Notes: generated by a model from the sequence alone, not told the origin. Counted from the first letter of the stretch, positions 3,093 to 12,347 are shown. The stretch: 12,347 nucleotides of DNA from a virus (IMGVR_UViG_2541047882_000003:1-12347); one strand, 5' to 3'. Numbers and translations: made by a program.

Positions 3093-3364
3093 TCATTTTT
3101 GCGCAAATACCCCTGGCATTTCTAAGCATGATCAACCTGATCATTGTTCGCGGTTTTTACGTGGCAAGGCCAGTAATTACGGGGCTTACATCAATGTTTA
3201 TTCCGCCCATCTCTGCGCAAAACAACTTAACAAACCTTAACATCACAGGCGGAACCATTGCGCAAATCTGGAGGCTTACCGCACGCACCAGCCTGATACA
3301 TTGCCAGAATGAACGAGGTGCGACACAATGTGTGTGCATGTCTTACTCATTGAACCTCAATCAA

Positions 3365-3397
3365 GGCGCATCCTTAGCGGTGCGCTTTTATTTTTTT
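3365..3397 (+). terminator. candidate rho-independent terminator (plus strand)
   Basis: GCGCA (3365-3369) pairs with TGCGC (3380-3384), with possible extra CC/GG pairs, followed by TTTTATTTTTTTG. Confidence 0.4.
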
Positions 3398-3435
3398 GTC
3401 GTTCCCTGCTGGTGGATGTTTTCCGGTACCGCGAA

Positions 3436-3945
3436 TTATTCCCCCTGGTGAATCTCCTGCACTACCTGCGGCGTGCTGTCGTGCCAGTCGTTAGCCTGTA
3501 TCACTCTGGTAGTAATTTGCCTGCACAGGTCATCAATAATCTGCCTGACGCGGTTTACTGCGTTCTGATTGATGCCTGCATCGTGCGCCAGAATGTCGGG
3601 GAGTTTTGCCAGTTCCTCGCTTAAGATTTTCCCAAAAATAACCAACTCCCTGCGCACATCCACGGCGGGGATAAGTTCAGCCGTTTCCTGCTCGAACTTA
3701 AGGCGCTCACGCTCAGACTGGTACCAGGCTTTACGGCTTTGTGGATCCATGTCTTCGAGTGATGCGGGGGCGGGTATATTCATGAATGCGCTGATTATAT
3801 CCGTCAGTCGGTACAGCTTTAATTTTTCATGCCCTCCGGCTGGCTGAATGTCCTTTAGCCTTTTCGCTACTGTCTGGCGGCAAACTCCCGCCAGTTCTGC
3901 GAGTTGATTGATATTAAGTTTCAGGTTTTTAAGCTCCCGATCCAT
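3436..3945 (-). CDS. phage small terminase subunit, lambda Nu1 family (TerS-like); longest ORF extends to 3984
   Basis: N-terminal LNINQLAELAGVCRQTVAKRLKD...EKLKLYRLTDIISAF aligns with the lambda Nu1 winged-HTH region (VNKKQLADIFGASIRTIQNWQEQ...NEVLYDSAAVIKWY), and the length is similar (169-182 aa against 181). GGAGG lies 4 nt upstream of the ATG at 3945, so I favour that start. No large terminase ORF follows. Confidence 0.7.
   Translation of the reverse strand: MDRELKNLKLNINQLAELAGVCRQTVAKRLKDIQPAGGHEKLKLYRLTDIISAFMNIPAPASLEDMDPQSRKAWYQSERERLKFEQETAELIPAVDVRRELVIFGKILSEELAKLPDILAHDAGINQNAVNRVRQIIDDLCRQITTRVIQANDWHDSTPQVVQEIHQGE
3444..3468. repeat. 25-bp direct repeat copy 2 (within the terS 3-prime end)
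   Basis: Exact match to 3068..3092. Confidence 0.85.
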
Positions 3946-4276: not shown

Positions 4277-4564
4277 TCACTGGTTACCGCCAGGCTGCTT
4301 CGGGTAGTTCCGCCAGACGGATTTACCCGCGTCTTCCATCCCCATCACCGCATGAGTGCGGTTTACAGCCTCTTTCAGTGCCCCGAAGTTATCCGCCATA
4401 ACGGGTGGGCGTGCTGCCCTGCGGATGCATTCCGCGCGACGCTTTGCCACCTGTTCGCGCTCCTTATCGGTGTTCACCAGCTGCATGACCTCAGCCCACC
4501 GCGCCGCCGCTCTCCGGTACAGGCCTTTAGCCTCCAGTTCTTCCGCTTTGCTGTCACGAATCAT
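4277..4564 (-). CDS. PerC-family-like small transcriptional regulator (paralog 2)
   Basis: 95 aa with DSKAEELEAKGLYRRAAARWAEV, matching the paralog at 1..372. Its start overlaps the stop of the upstream gene (ATGA at 4561-4564), indicating translational coupling. Confidence 0.6.
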   Translation of the reverse strand: MIRDSKAEELEAKGLYRRAAARWAEVMQLVNTDKEREQVAKRRAECIRRAARPPVMADNFGALKEAVNRTHAVMGMEDAGKSVWRNYPKQPGGNQ

Positions 4565-5097
4565 GCGCCTGTCTTCTCCTTTGTCGCCTGACGTTTGCGC
4601 TTTTCATTCAGTGCTGCCAGCCGCGTTTCTGCCTCCTGCTGTTCCTGTGGTGTCACTTCCCCACATGGCTGGCCTTTCAGGTCGTAACGTGTGCCACCAG
4701 CCATTAAGGCGCGGTAATAGCGCGGAGACTGCGCATAAGATGCCAGCGTCGCACGTAATGCCCCCGGCCCGAATGTCAGCCCCCTGGCGGCGATATCCTG
4801 TATCAGGTCGTCGAATATCCCCACCTTAAGCGGCTTCGGTGCTTTATGGCTGAATAAGTCAGGCCACATCTCAGTGAGGCGGTTAACGCGTCGGCGGTTT
4901 TTGCGCTGCCTTTTGGTCATATGCTGCCACGGTGTCGCCCCTGCGGTCTTCTGTTTGCGGCTCTGCTGTGCGTTCTGATTATCGGGTATCACTTTATGCG
5001 CCGATGTGGTTTTATCCTGCTCTTGTGCCGCCTGCGTCGTTTTCTGCGGCGTGCCGTAAATGCCTTTCGGTTTTCGGTTAATGGTCAGCTTTGTCAT
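4561..5097 (-). CDS. ProQ/FinO-domain RNA-binding protein
   Basis: 178 aa. PLKVGIFDDLI and LRATLASYAQSPRYYRALMAGGTRYDLKGQPCGEVTPQEQQEAE align closely with the E. coli ProQ N-terminal FinO-like domain (PLKIGIFQDLV...LRSALRLYTSSWRYL..GATRVDLDGNPCGEL) as I remember it. It is preceded by a basic, Q/K-rich N-terminus. Confidence 0.8.
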   Translation of the reverse strand: MTKLTINRKPKGIYGTPQKTTQAAQEQDKTTSAHKVIPDNQNAQQSRKQKTAGATPWQHMTKRQRKNRRRVNRLTEMWPDLFSHKAPKPLKVGIFDDLIQDIAARGLTFGPGALRATLASYAQSPRYYRALMAGGTRYDLKGQPCGEVTPQEQQEAETRLAALNEKRKRQATKEKTGA

Positions 5098-6158: not shown

Positions 6159-8282
6159 TTAATCTTCTTCGCTTTCTGGCTGGAACATCAGCACGTAAAA
6201 AACATGCTGCTTCCCCCCAATCCTGCCGAGCGCCTTTTTCTTGTAACGGCGGTCGTTACCCTTTTCCAGCATCCCCGCCGCATCAAGCGCCCTTGCAAAA
6301 TGCGACGGATTAAATCCCTGTGCTATCTCACCCTCAAATACATGCGGGAACGTGTAAAAACGGAACTCGTCATCTTCGTTTCTGATACTCCCCTTTCTGT
6401 ATCCGGCAAGCTCTTTAATCGGTAAATCACGCTCGTCGGTGTTGGGCCACGGAAGGTATCTGCTGAATCCGAACGACGCTAAAAAAGCCTCTGCCTGTTC
6501 AACCATCTGTTTAAACTCCCTGTTACCCGTGCCGAATTCCTTCACCCAGGCATTAAAATTATGCTGAATGGCATCGCGGCATTCCTGCTCATCCCAGCCA
6601 GTAACATGACCGGAAAGCACAAGCGCGGCCTCCAGTATGGCGAAACGCTCACCCACACGGTGTACCTGCTCGCCGTAGCTCTCCGGTATCAGGTTGCGCC
6701 ACCGTTCTCGGCATGACCTTACCGTGTCCTTTGCCTCCTGCTGGTGGTCTGCCAGCCATTTAACCCATTCACGACCCGCCGCCCCGTGATTTTCTGTCCA
6801 GGCATCTTTTAACGCGTCTGCGTGCGCCTTTCCGGTGCTGTATTCGTGAAATTGTGTGGCTTTTTCCATCGGCACGTTAAGCAGGCGGACAAGCTGCCCC
6901 GCCTTGACTTTTATCCCCTCCGTTTTGAGGAATGTTTCAACGTCCATTTCTCCGGTACTGATTGCCACCGTTCTCCAGTGTTTTATCTCCCTGTTGCCGC
7001 CGTCCTTCGCCCCCTGTAATTTCCCGGAACCGTTAAACAGCGTATAAGCAGACGTTGACACCTCCCGCGCGTTTCCGGCCTGGCCTATTTCATCCAGGGG
7101 TAACAGCCCGTCGTTGTGTGCCTCTGCCTCGTTGGCGATACCTAACGCTGTACCGTACCAGGTCAGCCGTTGTGCGTCCGGCTCTCCCCATAAACTTGAT
7201 GCGATGTTCTGTGTGGTGGTTTTCCCTGCCGATGACTGTTCGAAAAGATGTACCCCGAAGCCGTCAGCACCCACCAGCCCGATTAATGGTGCAGATAACG
7301 ATACCGCCACACCCAGCATCATGGACGGATTACCACCAGCCAGCCGCGCAACGGTATCGCGCCAGCCTTCCGCCGTTCCTGCCACGGAATAGCCATTAAC
7401 AGCGGCAGTTTTTCCGGTAAACAGAATCGGTTTTTCAGACTCACCAATGACCGAACCGTCCGGCATGATGTACGCGCCAAAATGCCAGCCCGTTGTTGTG
7501 CTTAACTGCCATTCCTCATGGTTTCCGCTTAACTGCATCCAGTCAGCCAGGATAGCCCTGTATTTGCCGTTGGTTGTCACGTTCAGGCCGTGGTCTTTCA
7601 GCAACCGCCAGCCGTCACGGTCGCCAATGCCACCGCACGGAATCGCCATTGTGATGACTTCATGATTTGCTGGCTTTTTCCAGCGCATCACGCGGTAATG
7701 CTCTTTACCGATTGTCCCCGTTCCCAGTAGTTCAAGCGGGGAACATAACCACGTCTCAGGCCGGATAATTTCGCCTGACTGCTTGTCAACTTTTGGCGTT
7801 ACCCAGAAAACACCATCGGCGCGGCTTTCAACGCGGGGCTTTAATTCATCATCGCTATAGCTTCCTGTGGCTTTTTTCTTTAAGGGCAACACCAGACTTT
7901 CCCCGCGCTCGTATTCGTCTTTCAGCCGGGCAAGCTGTGGTGTCCAGTCCTCCAGTAAATCGCCGTTCTCGTCACAAAAACAGGCTTCCTTAACACCAGC
8001 CACTGCCAGCAGGGTTTCAATCTGTAGCGCCAGTTTGTCATCCAGTTTTCCGGCACGTCTGACGATGGCGCGTGACCGACCCTCATCCACAATACGCAGG
8101 TTTTCCAGATTACCCAGGTCACGCCGTCCGAGATAAACAGGTGGTATTTTGTCGCCGCGCTTTCTGGCTTCTCCGCCCTGCATGTAATGCTCTGCGTGGC
8201 TGTATGCGTCATCCCCCGCAAAAATCACTGCATCCTCGCCTTTATCTTTCGGTAACAGTTTTACGTTCGGTGCCAGTTTCAT
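6159..8282 (-). CDS. replication protein with P-loop NTPase domain (putative primase/helicase-type initiator of the element)
   Basis: 707-aa ORF. Walker A-like SSAGKTT and Walker B-like LLPLDE are visible. Its start overlaps the upstream stop (ATGA at 8279-8282) and an iteron array follows its stop. Assignment to a specific primase/helicase family is not verified. Confidence 0.75.
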   Translation of the reverse strand: MKLAPNVKLLPKDKGEDAVIFAGDDAYSHAEHYMQGGEARKRGDKIPPVYLGRRDLGNLENLRIVDEGRSRAIVRRAGKLDDKLALQIETLLAVAGVKEACFCDENGDLLEDWTPQLARLKDEYERGESLVLPLKKKATGSYSDDELKPRVESRADGVFWVTPKVDKQSGEIIRPETWLCSPLELLGTGTIGKEHYRVMRWKKPANHEVITMAIPCGGIGDRDGWRLLKDHGLNVTTNGKYRAILADWMQLSGNHEEWQLSTTTGWHFGAYIMPDGSVIGESEKPILFTGKTAAVNGYSVAGTAEGWRDTVARLAGGNPSMMLGVAVSLSAPLIGLVGADGFGVHLFEQSSAGKTTTQNIASSLWGEPDAQRLTWYGTALGIANEAEAHNDGLLPLDEIGQAGNAREVSTSAYTLFNGSGKLQGAKDGGNREIKHWRTVAISTGEMDVETFLKTEGIKVKAGQLVRLLNVPMEKATQFHEYSTGKAHADALKDAWTENHGAAGREWVKWLADHQQEAKDTVRSCRERWRNLIPESYGEQVHRVGERFAILEAALVLSGHVTGWDEQECRDAIQHNFNAWVKEFGTGNREFKQMVEQAEAFLASFGFSRYLPWPNTDERDLPIKELAGYRKGSIRNEDDEFRFYTFPHVFEGEIAQGFNPSHFARALDAAGMLEKGNDRRYKKKALGRIGGKQHVFYVLMFQPESEED

Positions 8283-8593
8283 TTTGCTTTTCCCCGTTCA
8301 CGAATAATTTCACGTACTGCCTTAATGCGTTCCATACCTGTAACGCGCATGATTCTGTCGATGTCGCTTAAGTTCGCTGGTGGTGCTTTGCTTACCAGGG
8401 TGAATTCACTCTCAAAACGCATATGTGACGACACGCAGGGATGCGCATAACCTTCGCGAATATAAGTCACGCGAAAATCGTCAACGGTTTTTATCGTTAT
8501 TCGTCCACCATATTTATCTTTGAAAATATCGCCGGGGCGGATTTCAGGCCGAGCGGGGCCGCTGGCAGTAAAGCCAGAAATTTTCTGTTTCAT
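8279..8593 (-). CDS. hypothetical protein (104 aa), coupled to the replication protein
   Basis: ORF with ATG at 8593; 4-nt overlap with the downstream rep start. No family recognised with confidence. Confidence 0.6.
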   Translation of the reverse strand: MKQKISGFTASGPARPEIRPGDIFKDKYGGRITIKTVDDFRVTYIREGYAHPCVSSHMRFESEFTLVSKAPPANLSDIDRIMRVTGMERIKAVREIIRERGKAK

Positions 8594-8598
8594 GGTTT

Positions 8599-8832
8599 TT
8601 ATTTCCCGGTGTGTTGTTCTTTATATCTGTCGTGCAAAAGATCTATTTCTTGTAGTTCCATTATTACCGGCTCAAGAAGCGTTATTAACGCCGTCGCAAT
8701 ATTGCTGTTGCGTTTATCTCTTTCATTATCGCCAAGCGTTCCAAGCCATAAGCGCAATATTTCAAGCATGTTTTCACTGTAAGCAAGAGCACGGTATGCA
8801 CGGTCTACTGTGTCATTGTAAATATCACACAT
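8599..8832 (-). CDS. hypothetical protein (77 aa)
   Basis: ATG at 8832 with GGAGG 9 nt upstream; overlaps the upstream stop by 8 nt (ATGTGTGA). Confidence 0.55.
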   Translation of the reverse strand: MCDIYNDTVDRAYRALAYSENMLEILRLWLGTLGDNERDKRNSNIATALITLLEPVIMELQEIDLLHDRYKEQHTGK

Positions 8833-9070
8833 GGCTTACATCCTCCGGGAATTTTCTTCTGTAACGCGCCTCTGCCACATATTCCGCATAGTCCGACGCA
8901 ATATTGAGAATCTCCGCACCCTCTGACCTGTAGCCACTGGTATTGATAAGAAAAAATGCGGCTTTTATCATGTCAGCAACGCCCAACAATGCGTCTGCTT
9001 CGTGTTCCGGTGCGCCATCAAATTCCTGTTTCAGGGCATTAAAACGATCATCACGCATAACCCCCCCCAT
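8825..9070 (-). CDS. hypothetical protein (about 82 aa from the ATG at 9070; track shows an alternative TTG start at 9085)
   Basis: The first in-frame ATG is immediately followed by the G8 tract (ATGGGGGGGG on the coding strand). Overlaps the end of the upstream ORF in another frame. Confidence 0.5.
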   Translation of the reverse strand: MGGVMRDDRFNALKQEFDGAPEHEADALLGVADMIKAAFFLINTSGYRSEGAEILNIASDYAEYVAEARYRRKFPEDVSHV

Positions 9071-9290
9071 TTTCACAATCAGCAATCAGGATAGCCCTGG
9101 CCTCATTCAGTGCCATATCAGCACTAAATTGCATAACAGCCAGTGAGTGAGGAACGAAAGCCCCGGCATATTCTGTTTCGCTGGTGGCGTACTTATGCGC
9201 CTTGTCTGCGATAACAGAAATATCAATCAGCGCATCAATCAGTGTTTTTATAGCTTCGGCGGCTGCGTCCGGACGGGTGTTATTGCACAT
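9051..9290 (-). CDS. hypothetical protein (79 aa)
   Basis: ATG at 9290 with AGGAGG upstream; the start overlaps the stop of the 68-aa ORF (ATGTGCAATAA). Its C-terminus is encoded across the G8 tract. Confidence 0.55.
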   Translation of the reverse strand: MCNNTRPDAAAEAIKTLIDALIDISVIADKAHKYATSETEYAGAFVPHSLAVMQFSADMALNEARAILIADCENGGGYA

Positions 9291-9486
9291 GGCGTACCTC
9301 CTGACGAATACGGGCGGCGAATACCATCACGCAACCAGCCGGGGATTGCTGGCGTGCTTCCTGTTCGCTGGTGGCCTCGATGGTAATCACGCGCGGTTGT
9401 GCCGTGCTCAGGGCGATAAAACGCCAGATGTATTTATTCAGGTTGTGCGAGTCCCGCCCTTGCTGGTGTGTGGTATAATTTCTCAT
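9280..9486 (-). CDS. hypothetical protein (68 aa), first gene of the leftward replication operon
   Basis: ATG at 9486 with GAGGT 6 nt upstream. It is the in-frame C-terminal part of the spurious 371-aa track ORF. Its stop overlaps the next start. Confidence 0.5.
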   Translation of the reverse strand: MRNYTTHQQGRDSHNLNKYIWRFIALSTAQPRVITIEATSEQEARQQSPAGCVMVFAARIRQEVRHVQ

Positions 9487-9581
9487 AGCTACCTCGATAC
9501 TCTCGTTATCGTTGGTGGTTAGAGGCTGCGAAAGGACGGCAATCCTTTCCAGCCTCGTTTGCATTGAGTGATAGTTACTCA

Positions 9582-9664
9582 ACTGGATTCCAGTATAATC
9601 ACTAAGTGGAATCCACTTCAAGCATTTTGTTTTGGTCTTTTTCGTGTATACTGGATTCCAGTAA
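9582..9664. promoter_or_regulatory. divergent control region with three odd-length palindromes (candidate operators) overlapping -10-like hexamers
   Basis: ACTGGATTCCAGT at 9582-9594 and again at 9651-9663 (CTGGA-T-TCCAG), and GTGGAATCCAC at 9607-9617. TATAAT at 9593-9598 and TATACT at 9647-9652 on the plus strand. Lies between the minus-strand operon start (9486) and the plus-strand small gene (9683). Confidence 0.45.
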
Positions 9665-9682
9665 TCACAAAGGAAACCAGAA

Positions 9683-9862
9683 ATGGAAAGAGACCATATC
9701 AATAACAAATCACAGAAATTACAGGCTCGCGCCCCGCATGAAGTTGTTGAGGCAATGGAGCAAGTCAAAGAAACGGGCGAGAGTACTGCGCAGTTTATCG
9801 TTACAGCCATGCGTGGCGAGATCAAACGCCGCCAGCGCCGCAAGGCCAAAGAGCAGGAGTAA
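9683..9862 (+). CDS. small ribbon-helix-helix-like DNA-binding protein (59 aa); candidate repressor
   Basis: Not in the supplied track (below its length cutoff). ATG at 9683 with AGGAA 7-8 nt upstream; TAA at 9860-9862. The translation MERDHINNKSQKLQARAPHEVVEAMEQVKETGESTAQFIVTAMRGEIKRRQRRKAKEQE has a strand-helix-helix pattern typical of Arc/CopG-type proteins. Confidence 0.5.
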   Translation: MERDHINNKSQKLQARAPHEVVEAMEQVKETGESTAQFIVTAMRGEIKRRQRRKAKEQE

Positions 9863-9919
9863 CCATCACCAGCGCCGTGGTGCGGTGAACTGTGGCGCAC
9901 AGGGTTATAGGTATCTACG

Positions 9920-10117
9920 ATGACTGACAAATCATTAAAGAAATTATCCTCATCCAGGAAAAAACAACGCAAAAACGCGGTAAGAGAACATGAACAGGAA
10001 AGATTCGCGCCATGTGCGTTTGTCCTTGAAAAGTTCCTTAAAGAGTACAGGCGCACAAAAATGGGATCGCATGCCTGGAAAACATCGCAGCATGGCGATA
10101 CTAAAGAGCAGGAATAG
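9920..10117 (+). CDS. hypothetical small basic protein (65 aa)
   Basis: ATG at 9920 with AGG 8 nt upstream; Lys/Arg-rich. Followed about 100 nt later by a plus-strand terminator. Confidence 0.4.
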   Translation: MTDKSLKKLSSSRKKQRKNAVREHEQERFAPCAFVLEKFLKEYRRTKMGSHAWKTSQHGDTKEQE

Positions 10118-10220
10118 CCCACCAGCAAGCCAGCACACTGATCACATTGCCCACCAGCCGCAAATGTGGCATTGTTGATTATGCTCATGCGTTGGCGATA
10201 ACGTGTAGCTTGTGTCGAAG

Positions 10221-10248
10221 GGCCACCGTAGCGGGTGGCCTTTGTTTT
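10221..10248 (+). terminator. rho-independent terminator for the plus-strand small genes
   Basis: GGCCACC (10221-10227) / GGTGGCC (10234-10240) stem followed by TTTGTTTT. Confidence 0.5.
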
Positions 10249-10399
10249 GCCTGTTATCCGGCAATTGTGGCGCTTCGCCACACGGTTGATATAATTCTCC
10301 TGCACTGATCCATTTTTTTCGCAGCAGGTTAATTGTTCGCAAGGGCGCTCCGGCAACGGGGCGCTTTTTGTTATGTTCATCGCGTTACGCCTCACACCA

Positions 10400-10606
10400 T
10401 TACGCAGCCGTTCCGCGCGCTTCTTCCTCGCGCTCTTTCAGCCAGGCCAGCACTTCATCTTCATACCAGCCAACACGACGCAGACCGATTTTGAAGCCTT
10501 TCGGGAATTTTCCGGCGTTGATCATGTCCTGTAGCGAACTGTCTGCCTTGATGCGCAGAATATTTTTTACTTCCTGACGGGTAAGTATTTTTCTGATTGT
10601 TTCCAC
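10400..10606 (-). CDS. alpA: AlpA-family phage transcriptional regulator
   Basis: 68 aa. ILTRQEV..IL........DMINAGKFPK...GLRRVGWYEDEVLAWL matches the AlpA pattern (LRL..V......A..T.Y.W......P...........VGW.E.E...WL). GAGGT about 8 nt upstream of the ATG. Position relative to a P4-type int is typical. Confidence 0.75.
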   Translation of the reverse strand: METIRKILTRQEVKNILRIKADSSLQDMINAGKFPKGFKIGLRRVGWYEDEVLAWLKEREEEARGTAA

Positions 10607-11105: not shown

Positions 11106-12347
11106 TTACACGGCACGGATACCCCTTTTACCACTGGCTATGGTCACTCCGGTAGCTGCGGCCTCTACAAATTCCCCCCACCAGCGCATAAGCACCACGC
11201 GCTTTTCCAGGTAGTTACTTCGGTTATATGCTCGCCTTACCTCGTTTGTGTCCACGTGTGCGAGTGCGGCCTCGATTACGTCCGGCTCGAATCCTTCCTC
11301 GTTCGCTGCTGTACTGAATATGGCGCGTAATCCGTGAGACACCAGCACACCAGCGTAACCCATCCGGCGCAATGCGGCGTTAGCTGTCTGGCTGCTCATT
11401 GGCAGCATTGGATTTTTAAGGCTGGGAAAAACGTGTTCCCTGTGTGCGCTGATTGGCTTCATGGTTTCCAGTACAGCCATAGCCTGACCGCAAAGGGGGA
11501 TCACGTGGTCACGGCGCATCTTCATGCGTCCGGCTGGAATCGTCCAGGTTTCGGCATCGAGATCTATTTCTTCCCAGCGTGCGGCGGCTGCTTCGGCTGG
11601 GCGTGCTACGGTCAGCAGTTGCCACTCAATCAGCAATCTGGTTTGCCGTTCTATGCTGGCGACCGATAAATCGTGCATTAGCTGCGGTAGCTGTTCCGGT
11701 CGGATGGTTGGCATGTGCTTTTTGGTGGGTGAGGGGAATGCCTTGCGGACGTTCGCGGCGGTGTTGATGTCAATCAGCCCACTGTTGGCAGCAAAATCCA
11801 TCACTTCATTGATGCGTTGTAAAACGCGTTTCAGAGTTTCCAGGTTGCCGCGTGCTTTAATGGGTGTGAGTATCTCAACAAAGCGGCGAGCTGTGAGGGT
11901 ATCTATTGGCGTGTTTCCGATGTACGGGAATACGTATTTTTCCAGGGATCGCCAGATATCCTTAATCGTGTTGTAAGCCAGATTCTGGCCTTTTTTCATC
12001 TCGTACCAGTCCGAGGCAACTTTTTCGAACGTGTTGCCCTTTTTCCGACTCTCTGCTTCACGTTTCCGGCGTTCGTGGTCCTGTGGGTCAACTCCCTTCG
12101 CTATGAGTGACCTGTATTCATTCCGTCGTTCTCTGGCATCGGACAGGGAAACATCATTCAGCGATCCGAGGCTGATGATAGTCCGTTTTTTATCTGCCGG
12201 GCGGTAGTACGTAAAACGCCAGATTTTTGATCCGGAGGGTTTCACCAGAAGAAATAATCCTCCACCATCCTGCAGGGTGTATTCCTTTTCCCCTGGTCGT
12301 GCGTTTTTGATCTCCGTGATGGTTAGTGGAGTGGTTTTTCGTGCCAT
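11106..12347 (-). CDS. int: tyrosine-type site-specific integrase, P4-like
   Basis: 413 aa. N-terminal DGGGLFLLVKPSGSKIWRFTYY arm-binding-like region and C-terminal HGLRAIFST ... AALAHVDTNEVRRAYNRSNY catalytic region (H-x-x-R and the terminal Tyr) are typical of P4-family integrases. The ATG is the last three bases of the window, so the upstream region and att site are not visible. Confidence 0.9.
   Translation of the reverse strand: MARKTTPLTITEIKNARPGEKEYTLQDGGGLFLLVKPSGSKIWRFTYYRPADKKRTIISLGSLNDVSLSDARERRNEYRSLIAKGVDPQDHERRKREAESRKKGNTFEKVASDWYEMKKGQNLAYNTIKDIWRSLEKYVFPYIGNTPIDTLTARRFVEILTPIKARGNLETLKRVLQRINEVMDFAANSGLIDINTAANVRKAFPSPTKKHMPTIRPEQLPQLMHDLSVASIERQTRLLIEWQLLTVARPAEAAAARWEEIDLDAETWTIPAGRMKMRRDHVIPLCGQAMAVLETMKPISAHREHVFPSLKNPMLPMSSQTANAALRRMGYAGVLVSHGLRAIFSTAANEEGFEPDVIEAALAHVDTNEVRRAYNRSNYLEKRVVLMRWWGEFVEAAATGVTIASGKRGIRAV

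Follow-up and report, generated by a model that had tools for sequence, protein, structure and literature searches.

The five small open reading frames (ORFs) ahead of the primase gene in a 12,347-nucleotide viral stretch (IMGVR_UViG_2541047882_000003, analysed whole and called the window here) form, by gene content and order, the early regulation and replication operon of a Gram-negative phage-inducible chromosomal island (PICI) of the EcCICFT073 type. They amount to four genetic units: ORF1, a bipartite ORF2/ORF3, ORF4, and ORF5. Judged from sequence, the block is already known in kind, with ORF1 and ORF5 belonging to families that have studied members and ORF2, ORF3, and ORF4 being uncharacterised.

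Identity of the element and coding content of the block

We classified the element by asking for co-oriented int, alpA, and pri genes within about 10-15 kb and without lysis or tail genes. All three genes lie on the minus strand (Table 1), and none of the window ORFs scanned matched a structural or lysis family, in keeping with the initial annotation of the element as a phage satellite. Genes are ordered int, alpA, a divergent YlcI/YnfO-like gene, the block, a DUF927 primase, SSB, ProQ/FinO, PerC, and DUF1441. In E. coli PSS-15, a 98.8%-identical copy with the same gene set adjoins tRNA-Pro near yejM.

The closest model is EcCICFT073, which is equated with O-island 51 (CP-933C) and in which an orthologous, syntenic block likewise lies between alpA and the primase gene (PMC6092414). 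Shared in order and orientation are int, alpA, the divergent YlcI/YnfO-like gene, the Icd-like gene, the small ORFs, the DUF4222 gene, the primase gene, a hypothetical gene, SSB, and PerC. ORF1 is 94% identical to the Icd-like protein of CFT073, ORF2 47% to h2 (both end in GGGYA), ORF3 56% to h3, ORF4 71% to h4, and ORF5 52% to C1493. The two elements differ in that an additional gene of 76 aa separates the Icd-like gene of CFT073 from the ORF2 counterpart, in their operator sequences, and in their primases, the 584-aa 'DNA primase family' protein of CFT073 resembling the 707-aa DUF927 protein of the window over the first ~160 residues only. The window also lacks capsid or decoration genes and instead has ProQ/FinO, a second PerC, and DUF1441. 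Because the block is orthologous throughout to that of this model Gram-negative PICI, it is not an unseen module, and the original interpretation is partly supported. In EcCICFT073, AlpA is induced by the helper phage and activates island genes, transfer requires int, alpA, and pri, and helper dependence of induction, replication, and transfer has been demonstrated (PMC6092414).

Table 1. Coordinates of the features in the window
Feature	Position	Strand	Description
int	11106-12347	minus	
AlpA-family regulator	10400..10606	minus	upstream of unit; PF05930 E=4.5e-8; blastp E=3.6e-8 to P4 Vis/ORF88
Terminator-like hairpin	10218-10243	plus	past the 65-aa ORF
65-aa ORF	9920-10117		follows YlcI/YnfO-like gene
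YlcI/YnfO-like gene	9683..9862	plus	59 aa; divergent; 69% identical to CFT073 family protein at same position
ORF1-frame upstream extension	9487..10395	minus	303 stop-free codons from alpA stop to ORF1
Candidate operon promoter	9621-9592	minus	-35 TTGAAG, 18-nt spacer, -10 TATACT; sigma-70-like
Three 11-bp palindromes	9584-9594, 9606-9616, 9652-9662		CTGGAATCCAG twice, GTGGATTCCAC once
5' leader with two hairpins	9492..9556	minus	RNAalifold
ORF1	9486..9280	minus	68 aa; ATG; GAGG Shine-Dalgarno (SD); first gene of operon
ORF2	9290..9051	minus	79 aa; AGGAGG SD; N-terminal half of bipartite gene
Poly-G tract	9061..9068	minus	G8 on coding strand at ORF2/ORF3 junction; length sets fused or split phase
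ORF3	9058..8825	minus	77 aa from ATG 9058; C-terminal half of bipartite gene
ORF4	8832..8599	minus	77 aa; conserved
ORF5	8593..8279	minus	104 aa; DUF4222/RgdR-family; ATGA coupling to primase
DUF927 primase-helicase	8282..6159	minus	PF06048 E=3e-46, phrog_1139; last coupled gene of unit

The five ORFs, at 8279-9486 and all on the minus strand, are indeed overlapping and tightly packed. The stop/start junctions first described were right for ORF1/ORF2 (ATGTGCAATAA, an 11-nt overlap), ORF3/ORF4 (ATGTGTGA, an 8-nt overlap), and ORF5/primase, where the primase start codon shares bases with the ORF5 stop codon (ATGA). ORF4 and ORF5 are separated by a 5-nt gap, and ORF2 and ORF3 overlap by 8 nt if ORF3 starts at ATG 9058 (ATG 9070 would give 81 aa and TTG 9085 86 aa). 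Order and junctions were preserved in about 110 related loci, with spacings of -11 in 57 of 58, -8 or +1 in 81 of 86, and +5 in all 82, and with ATGA in 102 of 103. Given that these spacings are kept in related loci, the tight packing is more than chance. Estimates of dN/dS for ORF1 to ORF5 were 0.42, 0.38, 0.32, 0.32, and 0.43 (Nei-Gojobori; dS 0.34-0.65), and each exact window protein was found again on between 5 and 222 public contigs. The conserved order and junctions, together with a dN/dS of 0.32-0.43, imply that all five ORFs are coding, and the original picture of small ORFs that are translationally coupled, as read from the sequence, ahead of a replication gene holds up.

The poly-G junction and the uncharacterised ORFs

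The count of five ORFs hinges on the length of the hypermutable poly-G tract, because ORF2 and ORF3 are halves of a 154-155 aa frame that is a single ORF in many relatives. Across 134 contigs the tract was G7 in 33 and G10 in 5 (both fused) and G8 in 60, G9 in 31, and G11 in 2 (all split), with the fused state making up ~29% of contigs and the split state about 70%. EcCICFT073 shares the G8 split state of the window. We took as the mark of a phase-variable (contingency) locus an uninterrupted homopolymer of at least 7 bases in coding sequence whose length is polymorphic between otherwise identical sequences. Both features were present at the junction: the G run was uninterrupted in 80 of 88 loci found by a flank-only pattern, and tract length differed between haplotypes with identical flanks (more than one length in 3 of 11 multi-member haplotypes) and in 21 of 53 near-identical pairs. 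Homopolymer sequencing errors in older assemblies could account for some of this variation in tract length. At out-of-phase lengths both halves remain intact ORFs under constraint, and the junction supplies a start codon, which suggests a choice between fused and split rather than between on and off. In the G8 state of the window, the ORF3 ATG precedes the ORF2 stop by 4 nt and comes right after a G-rich SD-like run, and the tract may also act as the SD for ORF3.

It is highly improbable that the split is a biologically meaningless pseudogene frameshift or homopolymer sequencing error. Such a reading could draw on the 98.8%-identical relative, which has one 154-aa ORF in place of ORF2 and ORF3, on the existence of at least 120 protein clusters of 154-156 aa, and on the error-prone nature of G8-G11 runs in some sequencing chemistries. 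However, the split state predominates among the contigs and includes the CFT073 reference genome, exact split products recurred on 11 and 222 contigs (the latter for the 77-aa ORF3), and each half had the same dN/dS whether the locus was split or fused (0.40 versus 0.37 and 0.33 versus 0.35). Interrupted tracts, which are expected to be stable, were all in the split phase, distant relatives mostly had separate half-length proteins, and the placement of the ORF3 start behind an SD-like run also argues against an error. This explanation is largely refuted. The fuse/split tract merits follow-up in its own right.

Profile searches matched ORF2 to phrog_5146 and to phrog_2512 (residues 1-76), and ORF3 to phrog_2512 (residues 72-153) and to phrog_24341, where the match starts at residue 10 of the 86-aa form. 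ORF2 is predicted to be a helical hairpin, with low-confidence AlphaFold2 helices at residues 7-37 and 39-73; the AlphaFold2 model of ORF2-3 was unreliable (pLDDT 53). ORF4 matched phrog_2196 and had 469 database relatives, all named 'hypothetical' among the matches listed. It also aligned (hhalign probability 95.7%) to a 72-aa ORF directly upstream of the primase gene in vB_KppS-Ant, a relative carrying a capsid gene. Searches of Pfam, NCBIfam, PHROGs, PADLOC, PDB sequences, and the literature returned no assigned function for ORF2, ORF3, or ORF4. The initial annotation had recognised none of the five proteins, which stands for these three within the databases and literature searched but was wrong for ORF1 and ORF5.

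ORF1, ORF5, and the promoter region

ORF1 scored 69.8 bits (E=1.5e-19) against the Icd-like model NF033153, above its curated cut-off of 25, and P4 Kil scored 76.1 bits on the same NCBIfam model. This match places ORF1 in the Icd/Kil family. We also asked for a short product of 65-73 aa that ends a longer frame starting upstream of the proximal promoter, as in P4 eta/kil, and ORF1, at 68 aa, is such a short form, its frame staying open far upstream. The extension had no stops, whereas the two alternative minus-strand frames had 19 and 15, and over 56 alleles the mean number of stops was 1.0 versus 11.5 and 13.1. Long Icd-like forms were annotated by NCBI's PGAP in two relatives (L001 and L002). 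The dN/dS of the long frame (0.38) is ambiguous because a plausible antisense plus-strand gene has aligned wobble positions. The resemblance of the long frame to P4 eta/kil merits follow-up.

The P4 left operon runs vis, eta/kil, cI RNA, epsilon, orf151, orf106, and alpha, with 8-nt overlaps. Both P4 and the window place an AlpA/Vis-like regulator first, followed by a Kil/Icd-family gene ending a longer open frame and small overlapping ORFs running into the primase gene. In contrast, ORF2 to ORF5 had no detectable similarity to P4 epsilon (PF25738), orf151, or orf106 (DUF5375), and the window has a divergent protein-coding regulator where P4 has none. The immI operon of phage P1 (c4 RNA, icd, ant) likewise begins with a small Icd-family gene, after which NF033153 is named. 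Riedel, Heinrich, Schuster and co-workers reportedly found in 1993 that icd is translated first and that the next gene overlaps and depends on it. Unlike immI, the window has no Ant homologue and no C4/CI-type RNA detected by Rfam, and its downstream genes lead into a primase.

A consensus scan placed the candidate promoter ~105 nt upstream of ORF1, in a region where 3 sites were found versus 3.9 expected by chance. Many other alleles carry a TTGAC[GA]/TTGAAG hexamer at the matching position. There were no terminator-like sites on the minus strand within the block, and a single promoter for the block is plausible. The palindromes are candidate operators between divergent promoters, and other alleles have a repeat of their own at the two matching places around the -10. 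The YlcI/YnfO-like protein is a candidate regulator of the operon promoter. In the leader, RNAalifold on 13 alleles predicted a fold of 16 pairs, 7 with double changes. Hairpin 1 (9556-9522) is variable in sequence with compensatory changes, and hairpin 2 (9515-9492) is invariant, its CC pairing with the GG of the ORF1 SD.

ORF5 matched Pfam PF13973 (DUF4222) at residues 16-67 with 66.3 bits versus a gathering cut-off of 27, and its predicted fold is of the nucleic-acid-binding type. By family and position it is the syntenic counterpart of C1493/RgdR (ECs1581), which holds the same place directly upstream of the island primase gene, in CFT073 as C1493. The resemblance covers the N-terminal 70 residues. 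ORF5 is 104 aa versus 99 aa for RgdR/C1493, its C-terminal helical third belongs to another allele type, and the RGD tripeptide at residues 20-22 is replaced by P20-G21-D22. P20 was nearly invariant among 46 sampled DUF4222 members and PGD was present in most, with RGD being a feature of the EHEC/CFT073 subgroup. In published work RgdR regulates motility and type III secretion and binds DNA non-specifically; like C1493, RgdR/ECs1581 activates LEE1 and is a repressor of motility, and a change at residue 20 altered the activity of RgdR (PMC3378721).

Alternative readings and the proposed working of the unit

We considered how else the unit might act. The initial annotation favoured one or more small proteins acting on the helper, by derepressing a prophage or interfering with its development. 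Their position matches that of P4 epsilon and orf151, after kil and before the primase gene, and their mosaic diversification is as expected in an arms race. The best hhalign alignment to epsilon, a weak local one, paired ORF2 residues 44-67 with epsilon 53-76 (probability 14.7%). However, no window ORF matched the epsilon 'Derepression' family PF25738 even at E=1, versus 168 bits for P4 epsilon itself, which speaks against a derepression factor, and dN/dS of 0.3-0.4 gave no overall sign of positive selection. Moreover, no helper induction by incoming Gram-negative PICIs was seen, and it is the helper that induces PICIs through alpA rather than the reverse (Fillol-Salom et al. 2018; PMC6092414). 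We regard action on the helper as decidedly unlikely. Slightly less so, but still unlikely, is a replication accessory set in which ORF2 to ORF5 would be loader, origin-binding, or primase-modulating subunits and would work with the primase-helicase at its conserved N-terminal domain. The kept ATGA coupling, the SSB gene downstream, and the predicted fold of ORF5 are consistent with such a set, as is the tendency of the small-ORF block to accompany the first ~160 aa of the primase even as the remainder of the replicase is swapped among DUF927, 'DNA primase family', and RepA-helicase types. Yet profile, PDB, and other homology searches gave no known loader or initiator, and homology of all five ORFs to well-characterised replication accessory proteins, named at the outset as evidence against the helper-acting view, was looked for and not found. 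RgdR also works in trans on host promoters (PMC3378721), and a cloned EcCICFT073 pri-ori segment, which may or may not have included the small ORFs, was tried as a replicon (PMC6092414).

The third alternative, somewhat unlikely, is an abortive-infection or superinfection-exclusion module in which the Icd-like protein would be a toxic effector, the small proteins and primase would restrain it or sense infection, and an invading-phage protein would trigger growth arrest. In the ECOR61 prophage, phage orf24 triggers a cell-death module in which a primase gene is joined by an Icd-like gene and two small genes that overlap (QOYT01000045.1:8940-9317), with suppressor insertions in the Icd-like gene and in both small genes downstream of it; the reconstituted effect was described as muted (Silas et al.; bioRxiv 10.1101/2023.04.06.535777). 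From descriptions and supplementary coordinates, the window has the same architecture, including a long N-terminal extension of the Icd-like gene, small genes that overlap, and linkage to a primase gene. The ORF4 homologue of vB_KppS-Ant sits in a two-small-ORF arrangement as well, and EcCIMP1 has a part in superinfection immunity. Against this, the transposon-hit ECOR61 genes are 61 and 63 aa versus 79, 77, 77, and 104 aa in the window, and PADLOC matched none of the window ORFs. The interference of EcCICFT073 with lambda was reportedly put down later to packaging redirection by Fillol-Salom and co-workers in 2019. Abortive infection is compatible with the explanation that we prefer.

That explanation, which joins the identity of the block as a PICI early operon to the working set out here, is in our judgement rather probable as a whole. 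In a resident island the unit would be silent until a helper phage turns on AlpA, leading to transcription from upstream and/or from the operator-flanked promoter. Ribosomes would read ORF1, possibly as a long form from just past alpA as in P4 eta/kil, and stop/start coupling would take translation through ORF2, ORF3, ORF4, and ORF5 into the primase gene, giving fixed stoichiometry and shielding the RNA from Rho-dependent polarity. Judging by its family, ORF1 would halt division or growth of the host. ORF5 may reprogram transcription as a low-specificity DNA- or RNA-polymerase-associated factor, with the published effects on LEE and motility as by-products. ORF2/3 and ORF4 would be small helical proteins that partner this set, the N-terminal domain of the primase, or the helper.

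The five-ORF block as part of an EcCICFT073-type island

As placed in the initial annotation, five small consecutive ORFs on the minus strand (ORF1-ORF5) precede the replication gene, and the window's ORF list and sequence agree that they fill positions 8279-9486 without gaps. The junction strings reported for them, ATGTGCAATAA, ATGTGTGA and ATGA, are all found in the sequence. Shine-Dalgarno (SD) sequences are good for ORF1, ORF2 and ORF4 and weak for ORF5, and a run of eight G precedes the ORF3 start at ATG 9058.

Features of the window and their counterparts in the CFT073 region (positions in brackets are those of the CFT073 region)
Feature	Position	Strand	Length	CFT073 counterpart and identity
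Tyrosine integrase	11106-12347	minus		
AlpA-family regulator	10400-10606	minus		
Open frame upstream of ORF1	9487-10395	minus	303 codons	
YlcI/YnfO-like gene (divergent)	9683-9862	plus		YlcI/YnfO family protein, 69%
65-aa ORF		plus	65 aa	57-aa ORF, 55%
Palindromes	9584-9594, 9606-9616, 9652-9662		11 bp each	
Sigma-70-like site	9621-9592	minus		
Leader hairpins	9492-9556	minus		
ORF1	9486..9280	minus	68 aa	Icd-like, 94%
ORF2	9290..9051	minus	79 aa	h2 (small gene), 47%
ORF3	TTG 9085, ATG 9070 or ATG 9058 to 8825	minus	86, 81 or 77 aa	h3 (small gene), 56%
ORF4	8832..8599	minus	77 aa	h4 (small gene), 71%
ORF5	8593..8279	minus	104 aa	C1493, 52% over residues 1-71
DUF927 primase	8282 (start)	minus	707 aa	
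Primase N-terminus	7800-8282	minus	~160 residues	Primase (4478-4970), 41%
ProQ/FinO-family gene	4561-5097	minus		
PerC-family gene	4277-4564	minus		
PerC-family gene (window edge)	1-372	minus		
Stretch with no ORF above ~130 aa	1130-3430		~2.3 kb	
Additional small gene			76 aa	Present in CFT073 only (3286-3516)

We gathered 134 related contigs from IMG/VR and metagenomes by an exact junction pattern, 109 of which (window included) had flanks long enough for analysis. ORF order and approximate lengths were preserved across these 109 loci. Junction spacings were conserved among related loci, at -11 in 57 of 58, -8 or +1 in 81 of 86, +5 in 82 of 82, and ATGA in 102 of 103. Nei-Gojobori dN/dS was 0.42, 0.38, 0.32, 0.32 and 0.43 for ORF1 through ORF5, with dS of 0.34-0.65, and the exact window proteins are recorded on 5 to 222 contigs each. 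The conserved order, lengths and junctions, the dN/dS values and the recurrence of exact proteins together establish ORF1-ORF5 as real genes. Parts of the 1.2-kb block were matched in 1632 of 5426 complete E. coli genomes. Individual variants of the proteins are found on hundreds of contigs. The block's DNA had no match in a phage DNA collection, and a phage-collection protein search with ORF1 matched a single record, vB_KppS-Ant, an induced element of 16.5 kb that carries genes for capsid, portal and terminase.

After alpA, the minus strand of the window carries the five ORFs, the primase, a 116-aa ORF and SSB, then ProQ/FinO, PerC-family, DUF1441 and a second PerC-family gene. E. coli PSS-15 has a copy 98.8% identical, adjoining tRNA-Pro beside yejM. 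Flockhart et al. gave the RgdR homologue C1493 as a gene in a region of CFT073 (PMC3378721), and Fillol-Salom et al. equated EcCICFT073 with O-island 51 (PMC6092414); the CFT073 region of C1493 is the island EcCICFT073. Its layout is that of the window: int, an AlpA-type HTH gene, a divergent pair (a 57-aa ORF and a YlcI/YnfO family protein), an Icd-like gene, four small hypothetical genes, DUF4222, primase, a hypothetical gene, SSB and PerC. Given this shared layout and the identities in the table, the window is a Gram-negative phage-inducible chromosomal island (PICI) of the EcCICFT073 type, and the "five tiny ORFs" are the alpA-to-pri segment of such islands. The block is an allele of their early operon, an ordinary conserved satellite module. 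The initial observation is confirmed and its interpretation partly supported.

The islands also differ. EcCICFT073 has one additional small gene that the window lacks, placed after the Icd-like gene and before the homologue of ORF2, and the count of small ORFs in the block varies between islands. The CFT073 and window primases are common only over their N-terminal part; the start of the vB_KppS-Ant primase is also similar to the window primase N-terminus, judged by eye. The remaining replicase differs in type (DUF927, "DNA primase family" or RepA helicase), with the small-ORF block retained. Two PerC-family genes lie in this one island, and with ORF5, of the RgdR family, the element holds three homologues of LEE regulators. 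Downstream of SSB is a gene for a ProQ/FinO-family RNA-binding protein, where CFT073 has none. One stretch of the window has no ORF above ~130 aa on either strand; in PSS-15, an IS21-family element between the PerC and DUF1441 genes adjoins its counterpart.

A poly-G tract between ORF2 and ORF3

ORF2 and ORF3 match the two halves of a single PHROG, phrog_2512 (154 positions). In PSS-15 they are united as one 154-aa CDS, and at least 120 protein clusters (78-100% identity) have lengths of 154-156 aa. A homopolymer distinguishes the alleles: the window reads AAT-G8-TT-ATG, PSS-15 G8-T and strain tcmA_3 G9-TT. Across the 134 contigs, the tract was G7 in 33 (fused), G8 in 60 (split, as in the window and CFT073), G9 in 31 (split), G10 in 5 (fused), G11 in 2 (split), G8+T in 1 (fused) and interrupted in 2. 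Fused alleles thus make up ~29% of contigs, near the one third expected under unconstrained phase. A second pattern, with fixed flanks only, yielded 88 IMG/VR loci; the G run was uninterrupted in 80 of them, and all 8 interrupted tracts were in split phase. Among 11 haplotypes with identical flanks, 3 varied internally in tract length, and so did 21 out of 53 pairs of near-identical sequences, which implies that the tract changes faster than point substitutions, with homopolymer sequencing errors possibly accounting for part of the variation.

With G8, the ATG of ORF3 sits 4 nt ahead of the ORF2 stop and immediately 3' of the G run, a position from which both halves could be made in every phase. 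Per-half dN/dS was equal between fused and split loci. Only 50 clusters matched among 1.84 billion representative proteins, the more distant ones being mostly half-length. This pattern points to a pair of genes that have become joined in certain alleles, and not to a single gene that other alleles have broken. A contig scan with the fused protein confirmed no locus, and comparing the ORF2, ORF3 and ORF4 families with each other detected no relation.

Homologues of the block proteins and the upstream control region

Translating the P4 record (X51522) revealed that Kil forms the last 65 residues of an obsolete "cI gene product (AA 1-137)" CDS (8168-8584). The Kil peptide scored 76.1 bits on the Icd-like NCBIfam model NF033153, which ORF1 also matches, and ORF1 is therefore a P4 Kil homologue. 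The PHROG label "transcriptional repressor" for the ORF1 family most likely traces to the obsolete cI annotation. Fillol-Salom et al. listed only AlpA, Pri-Rep and Int as common to PICIs and P4 (PMC6092414); the link between ORF1 and Kil adds a fourth gene to the three of that founding paper.

ORF5 matched DUF4222 at 66.3 bits (cut-off 27). Characterised members of this family are RgdR (ECs1581, 99 aa) of EHEC O-island 51 and C1493 of CFT073 (PMC3378721). Each is an activator of LEE1 and type III secretion and a repressor of motility, and DNA binding by purified RgdR is non-specific (PMC3378721; review PMC10877973). EcCICFT073 has C1493 immediately before its primase gene, so ORF5 corresponds to C1493 in position. 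Positions 20-22 of ORF5 read PGD, not RGD, as in most of 46 aligned family members, and its C-terminal third is of a different allele type, seen also in Salmonella, Citrobacter, Kosakonia and Enterobacter.

Structure prediction, proposed initially for each ORF, gave a more confident model for ORF5 than for fused ORF2-3. With the 46-member alignment, AlphaFold2 predicted ORF5 to be a five-stranded SH3-like barrel at residues 23-68 with two helices after it (pLDDT 76). The ORF2-3 model showed helices only, with a disordered junction (pLDDT 53). The predicted ORF5 fold is compatible with, and no proof of, a nucleic-acid- or RNA-polymerase-binding module. Its fold-match scores were low, at the level usual for small barrels, and a search against viral models returned uncharacterised small barrels and DUF1653, nothing else. 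A possible match of ORF5 to the N-terminus of P4 orf151 had a probability of only 4%.

The sole family assignment of ORF4 is a PHROG of unknown function; among its 469 database relatives, those listed are all named "hypothetical" and nearly all are exactly 77 aa. It is homologous to a 72-aa ORF directly before the vB_KppS-Ant primase (hhalign probability 95.7%). The statement that none of the five was recognised thus no longer holds for ORF1 and ORF5, and stands for ORF2, ORF3 and ORF4, which are without assigned function. None of the ORFs matched PF25738, the "Derepression" family of P4 epsilon, and blastp and hhalign against P4 epsilon, orf151 and orf106 gave no convincing match, leaving the suggested role in helper derepression without support. 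PDB sequence and profile searches with ORF1, ORF2-3, ORF4 and ORF5 returned nothing below E=0.5.

Upstream of ORF1 by ~105 nt is a sigma-70-like site (TTGAAG, 18-nt spacer, TATACT), in a promoter scan that was overall not above chance. A TTGAC[GA]/TTGAAG hexamer occupies the equivalent place in 46 distinct leader alleles, and a short sequence peculiar to the allele lies between -35 and -10 and recurs just past -10. In the window, three palindromes that share a TGGAWTCCA core flank the divergent promoters, the third adjoining the divergent YlcI/YnfO-like gene. The different repeats found at these positions in other islands suggest candidate allele-specific operators for the YlcI/YnfO-like small protein, a candidate repressor. 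Islands of this class reportedly lack a known master repressor. The leader forms two hairpins, the first variable with compensatory changes and the second invariant, its CC pairing with the GG of the ORF1 SD. Rfam, searched at permissive thresholds over the whole window, gave one chance snoRNA match and no C4/CI-type RNA, which leaves no support for reading the leader as an RNA-immunity element. The ProQ/FinO-family protein could act on this structured leader.

The ORF1 frame stays open far upstream; it has 0 stops, compared to 19 in one of the remaining frames and 15 in the other. Over 56 alleles, the mean was 1.0 stop per 200 codons in the ORF1 frame versus 11.5 and 13.1. The open stretch fills the interval between the stop codon of alpA and ORF1 in the window, CFT073, two other annotated genomes and most of the 56 alleles, and NCBI PGAP annotations place long "Icd-like" forms over it. 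This resembles the eta/kil arrangement of P4, in which, as Forti et al. reportedly described in 1999, kil is the end of a longer eta frame read only from the upstream promoter. The window frame also agrees with the "long N-terminal extension" that Silas et al. note for the Icd-like gene of ECOR61, a prophage cell-death locus (bioRxiv 10.1101/2023.04.06.535777). Because the long frame is antisense to plus-strand genes and shares their wobble positions, its low dN/dS of 0.38 is not assignable to a strand and is uninformative.

Possible roles of the block

The sequence analysis establishes which genes these are and that they are conserved, along with their coupling architecture, the polymorphism of the tract and the homologies described here. 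AlpA is helper-induced and activates EcCICFT073 genes, and pri and int are required for replication and transfer of that island (PMC6092414). RgdR proteins alter host transcription (PMC3378721). We infer that the block would be expressed upon induction as a single translationally coupled unit, in which ORF1 would arrest the host, ORF5 would serve as a transcription modulator or primase helper, and ORF2/3 and ORF4 would be small helical partner proteins. Abortive infection is a tentative reading of the block, and we consider it doubtful. In ECOR61, an Icd-like gene together with overlapping small genes and a primase causes phage-triggered cell death (bioRxiv 10.1101/2023.04.06.535777). PADLOC matched none of the five ORFs, the primase or three neighbouring ORFs. 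A replication-accessory function for the block seems unlikely. These two readings are not mutually exclusive.

A more elaborate proposal, which we regard as improbable, runs as follows. The poly-G tract would be a heritable fast switch between one two-domain chain and two separately translated subunits. An eta-like long Kil form would be made from AlpA-driven transcripts, carrying ribosomes across the regulatory region. With Icd/Kil and ORF4, the products of the tract locus and of the long frame would constitute a growth-arrest module of the ECOR61 kind. If true, this module would determine which of helper and island, if either, is supported by an infected cell.

The tract, the long frame and the links to Kil and RgdR leave the classification unchanged. 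The block is very common in E. coli and part of the model island for Gram-negative satellites. No role is known for three of the block's products, and knowledge of the remaining two comes via distant relatives or virulence-gene side effects only. The literature on EcCICFT073 small ORFs holds no functional study apart from that of RgdR, a published virulence regulator that is here returned to its satellite context as a primase-coupled gene of a PICI early operon. The points of interest are the poly-G tract with its fused and split states, the long frame that resembles eta/kil, and what ORF2, ORF3 and ORF4 do in so common an element.
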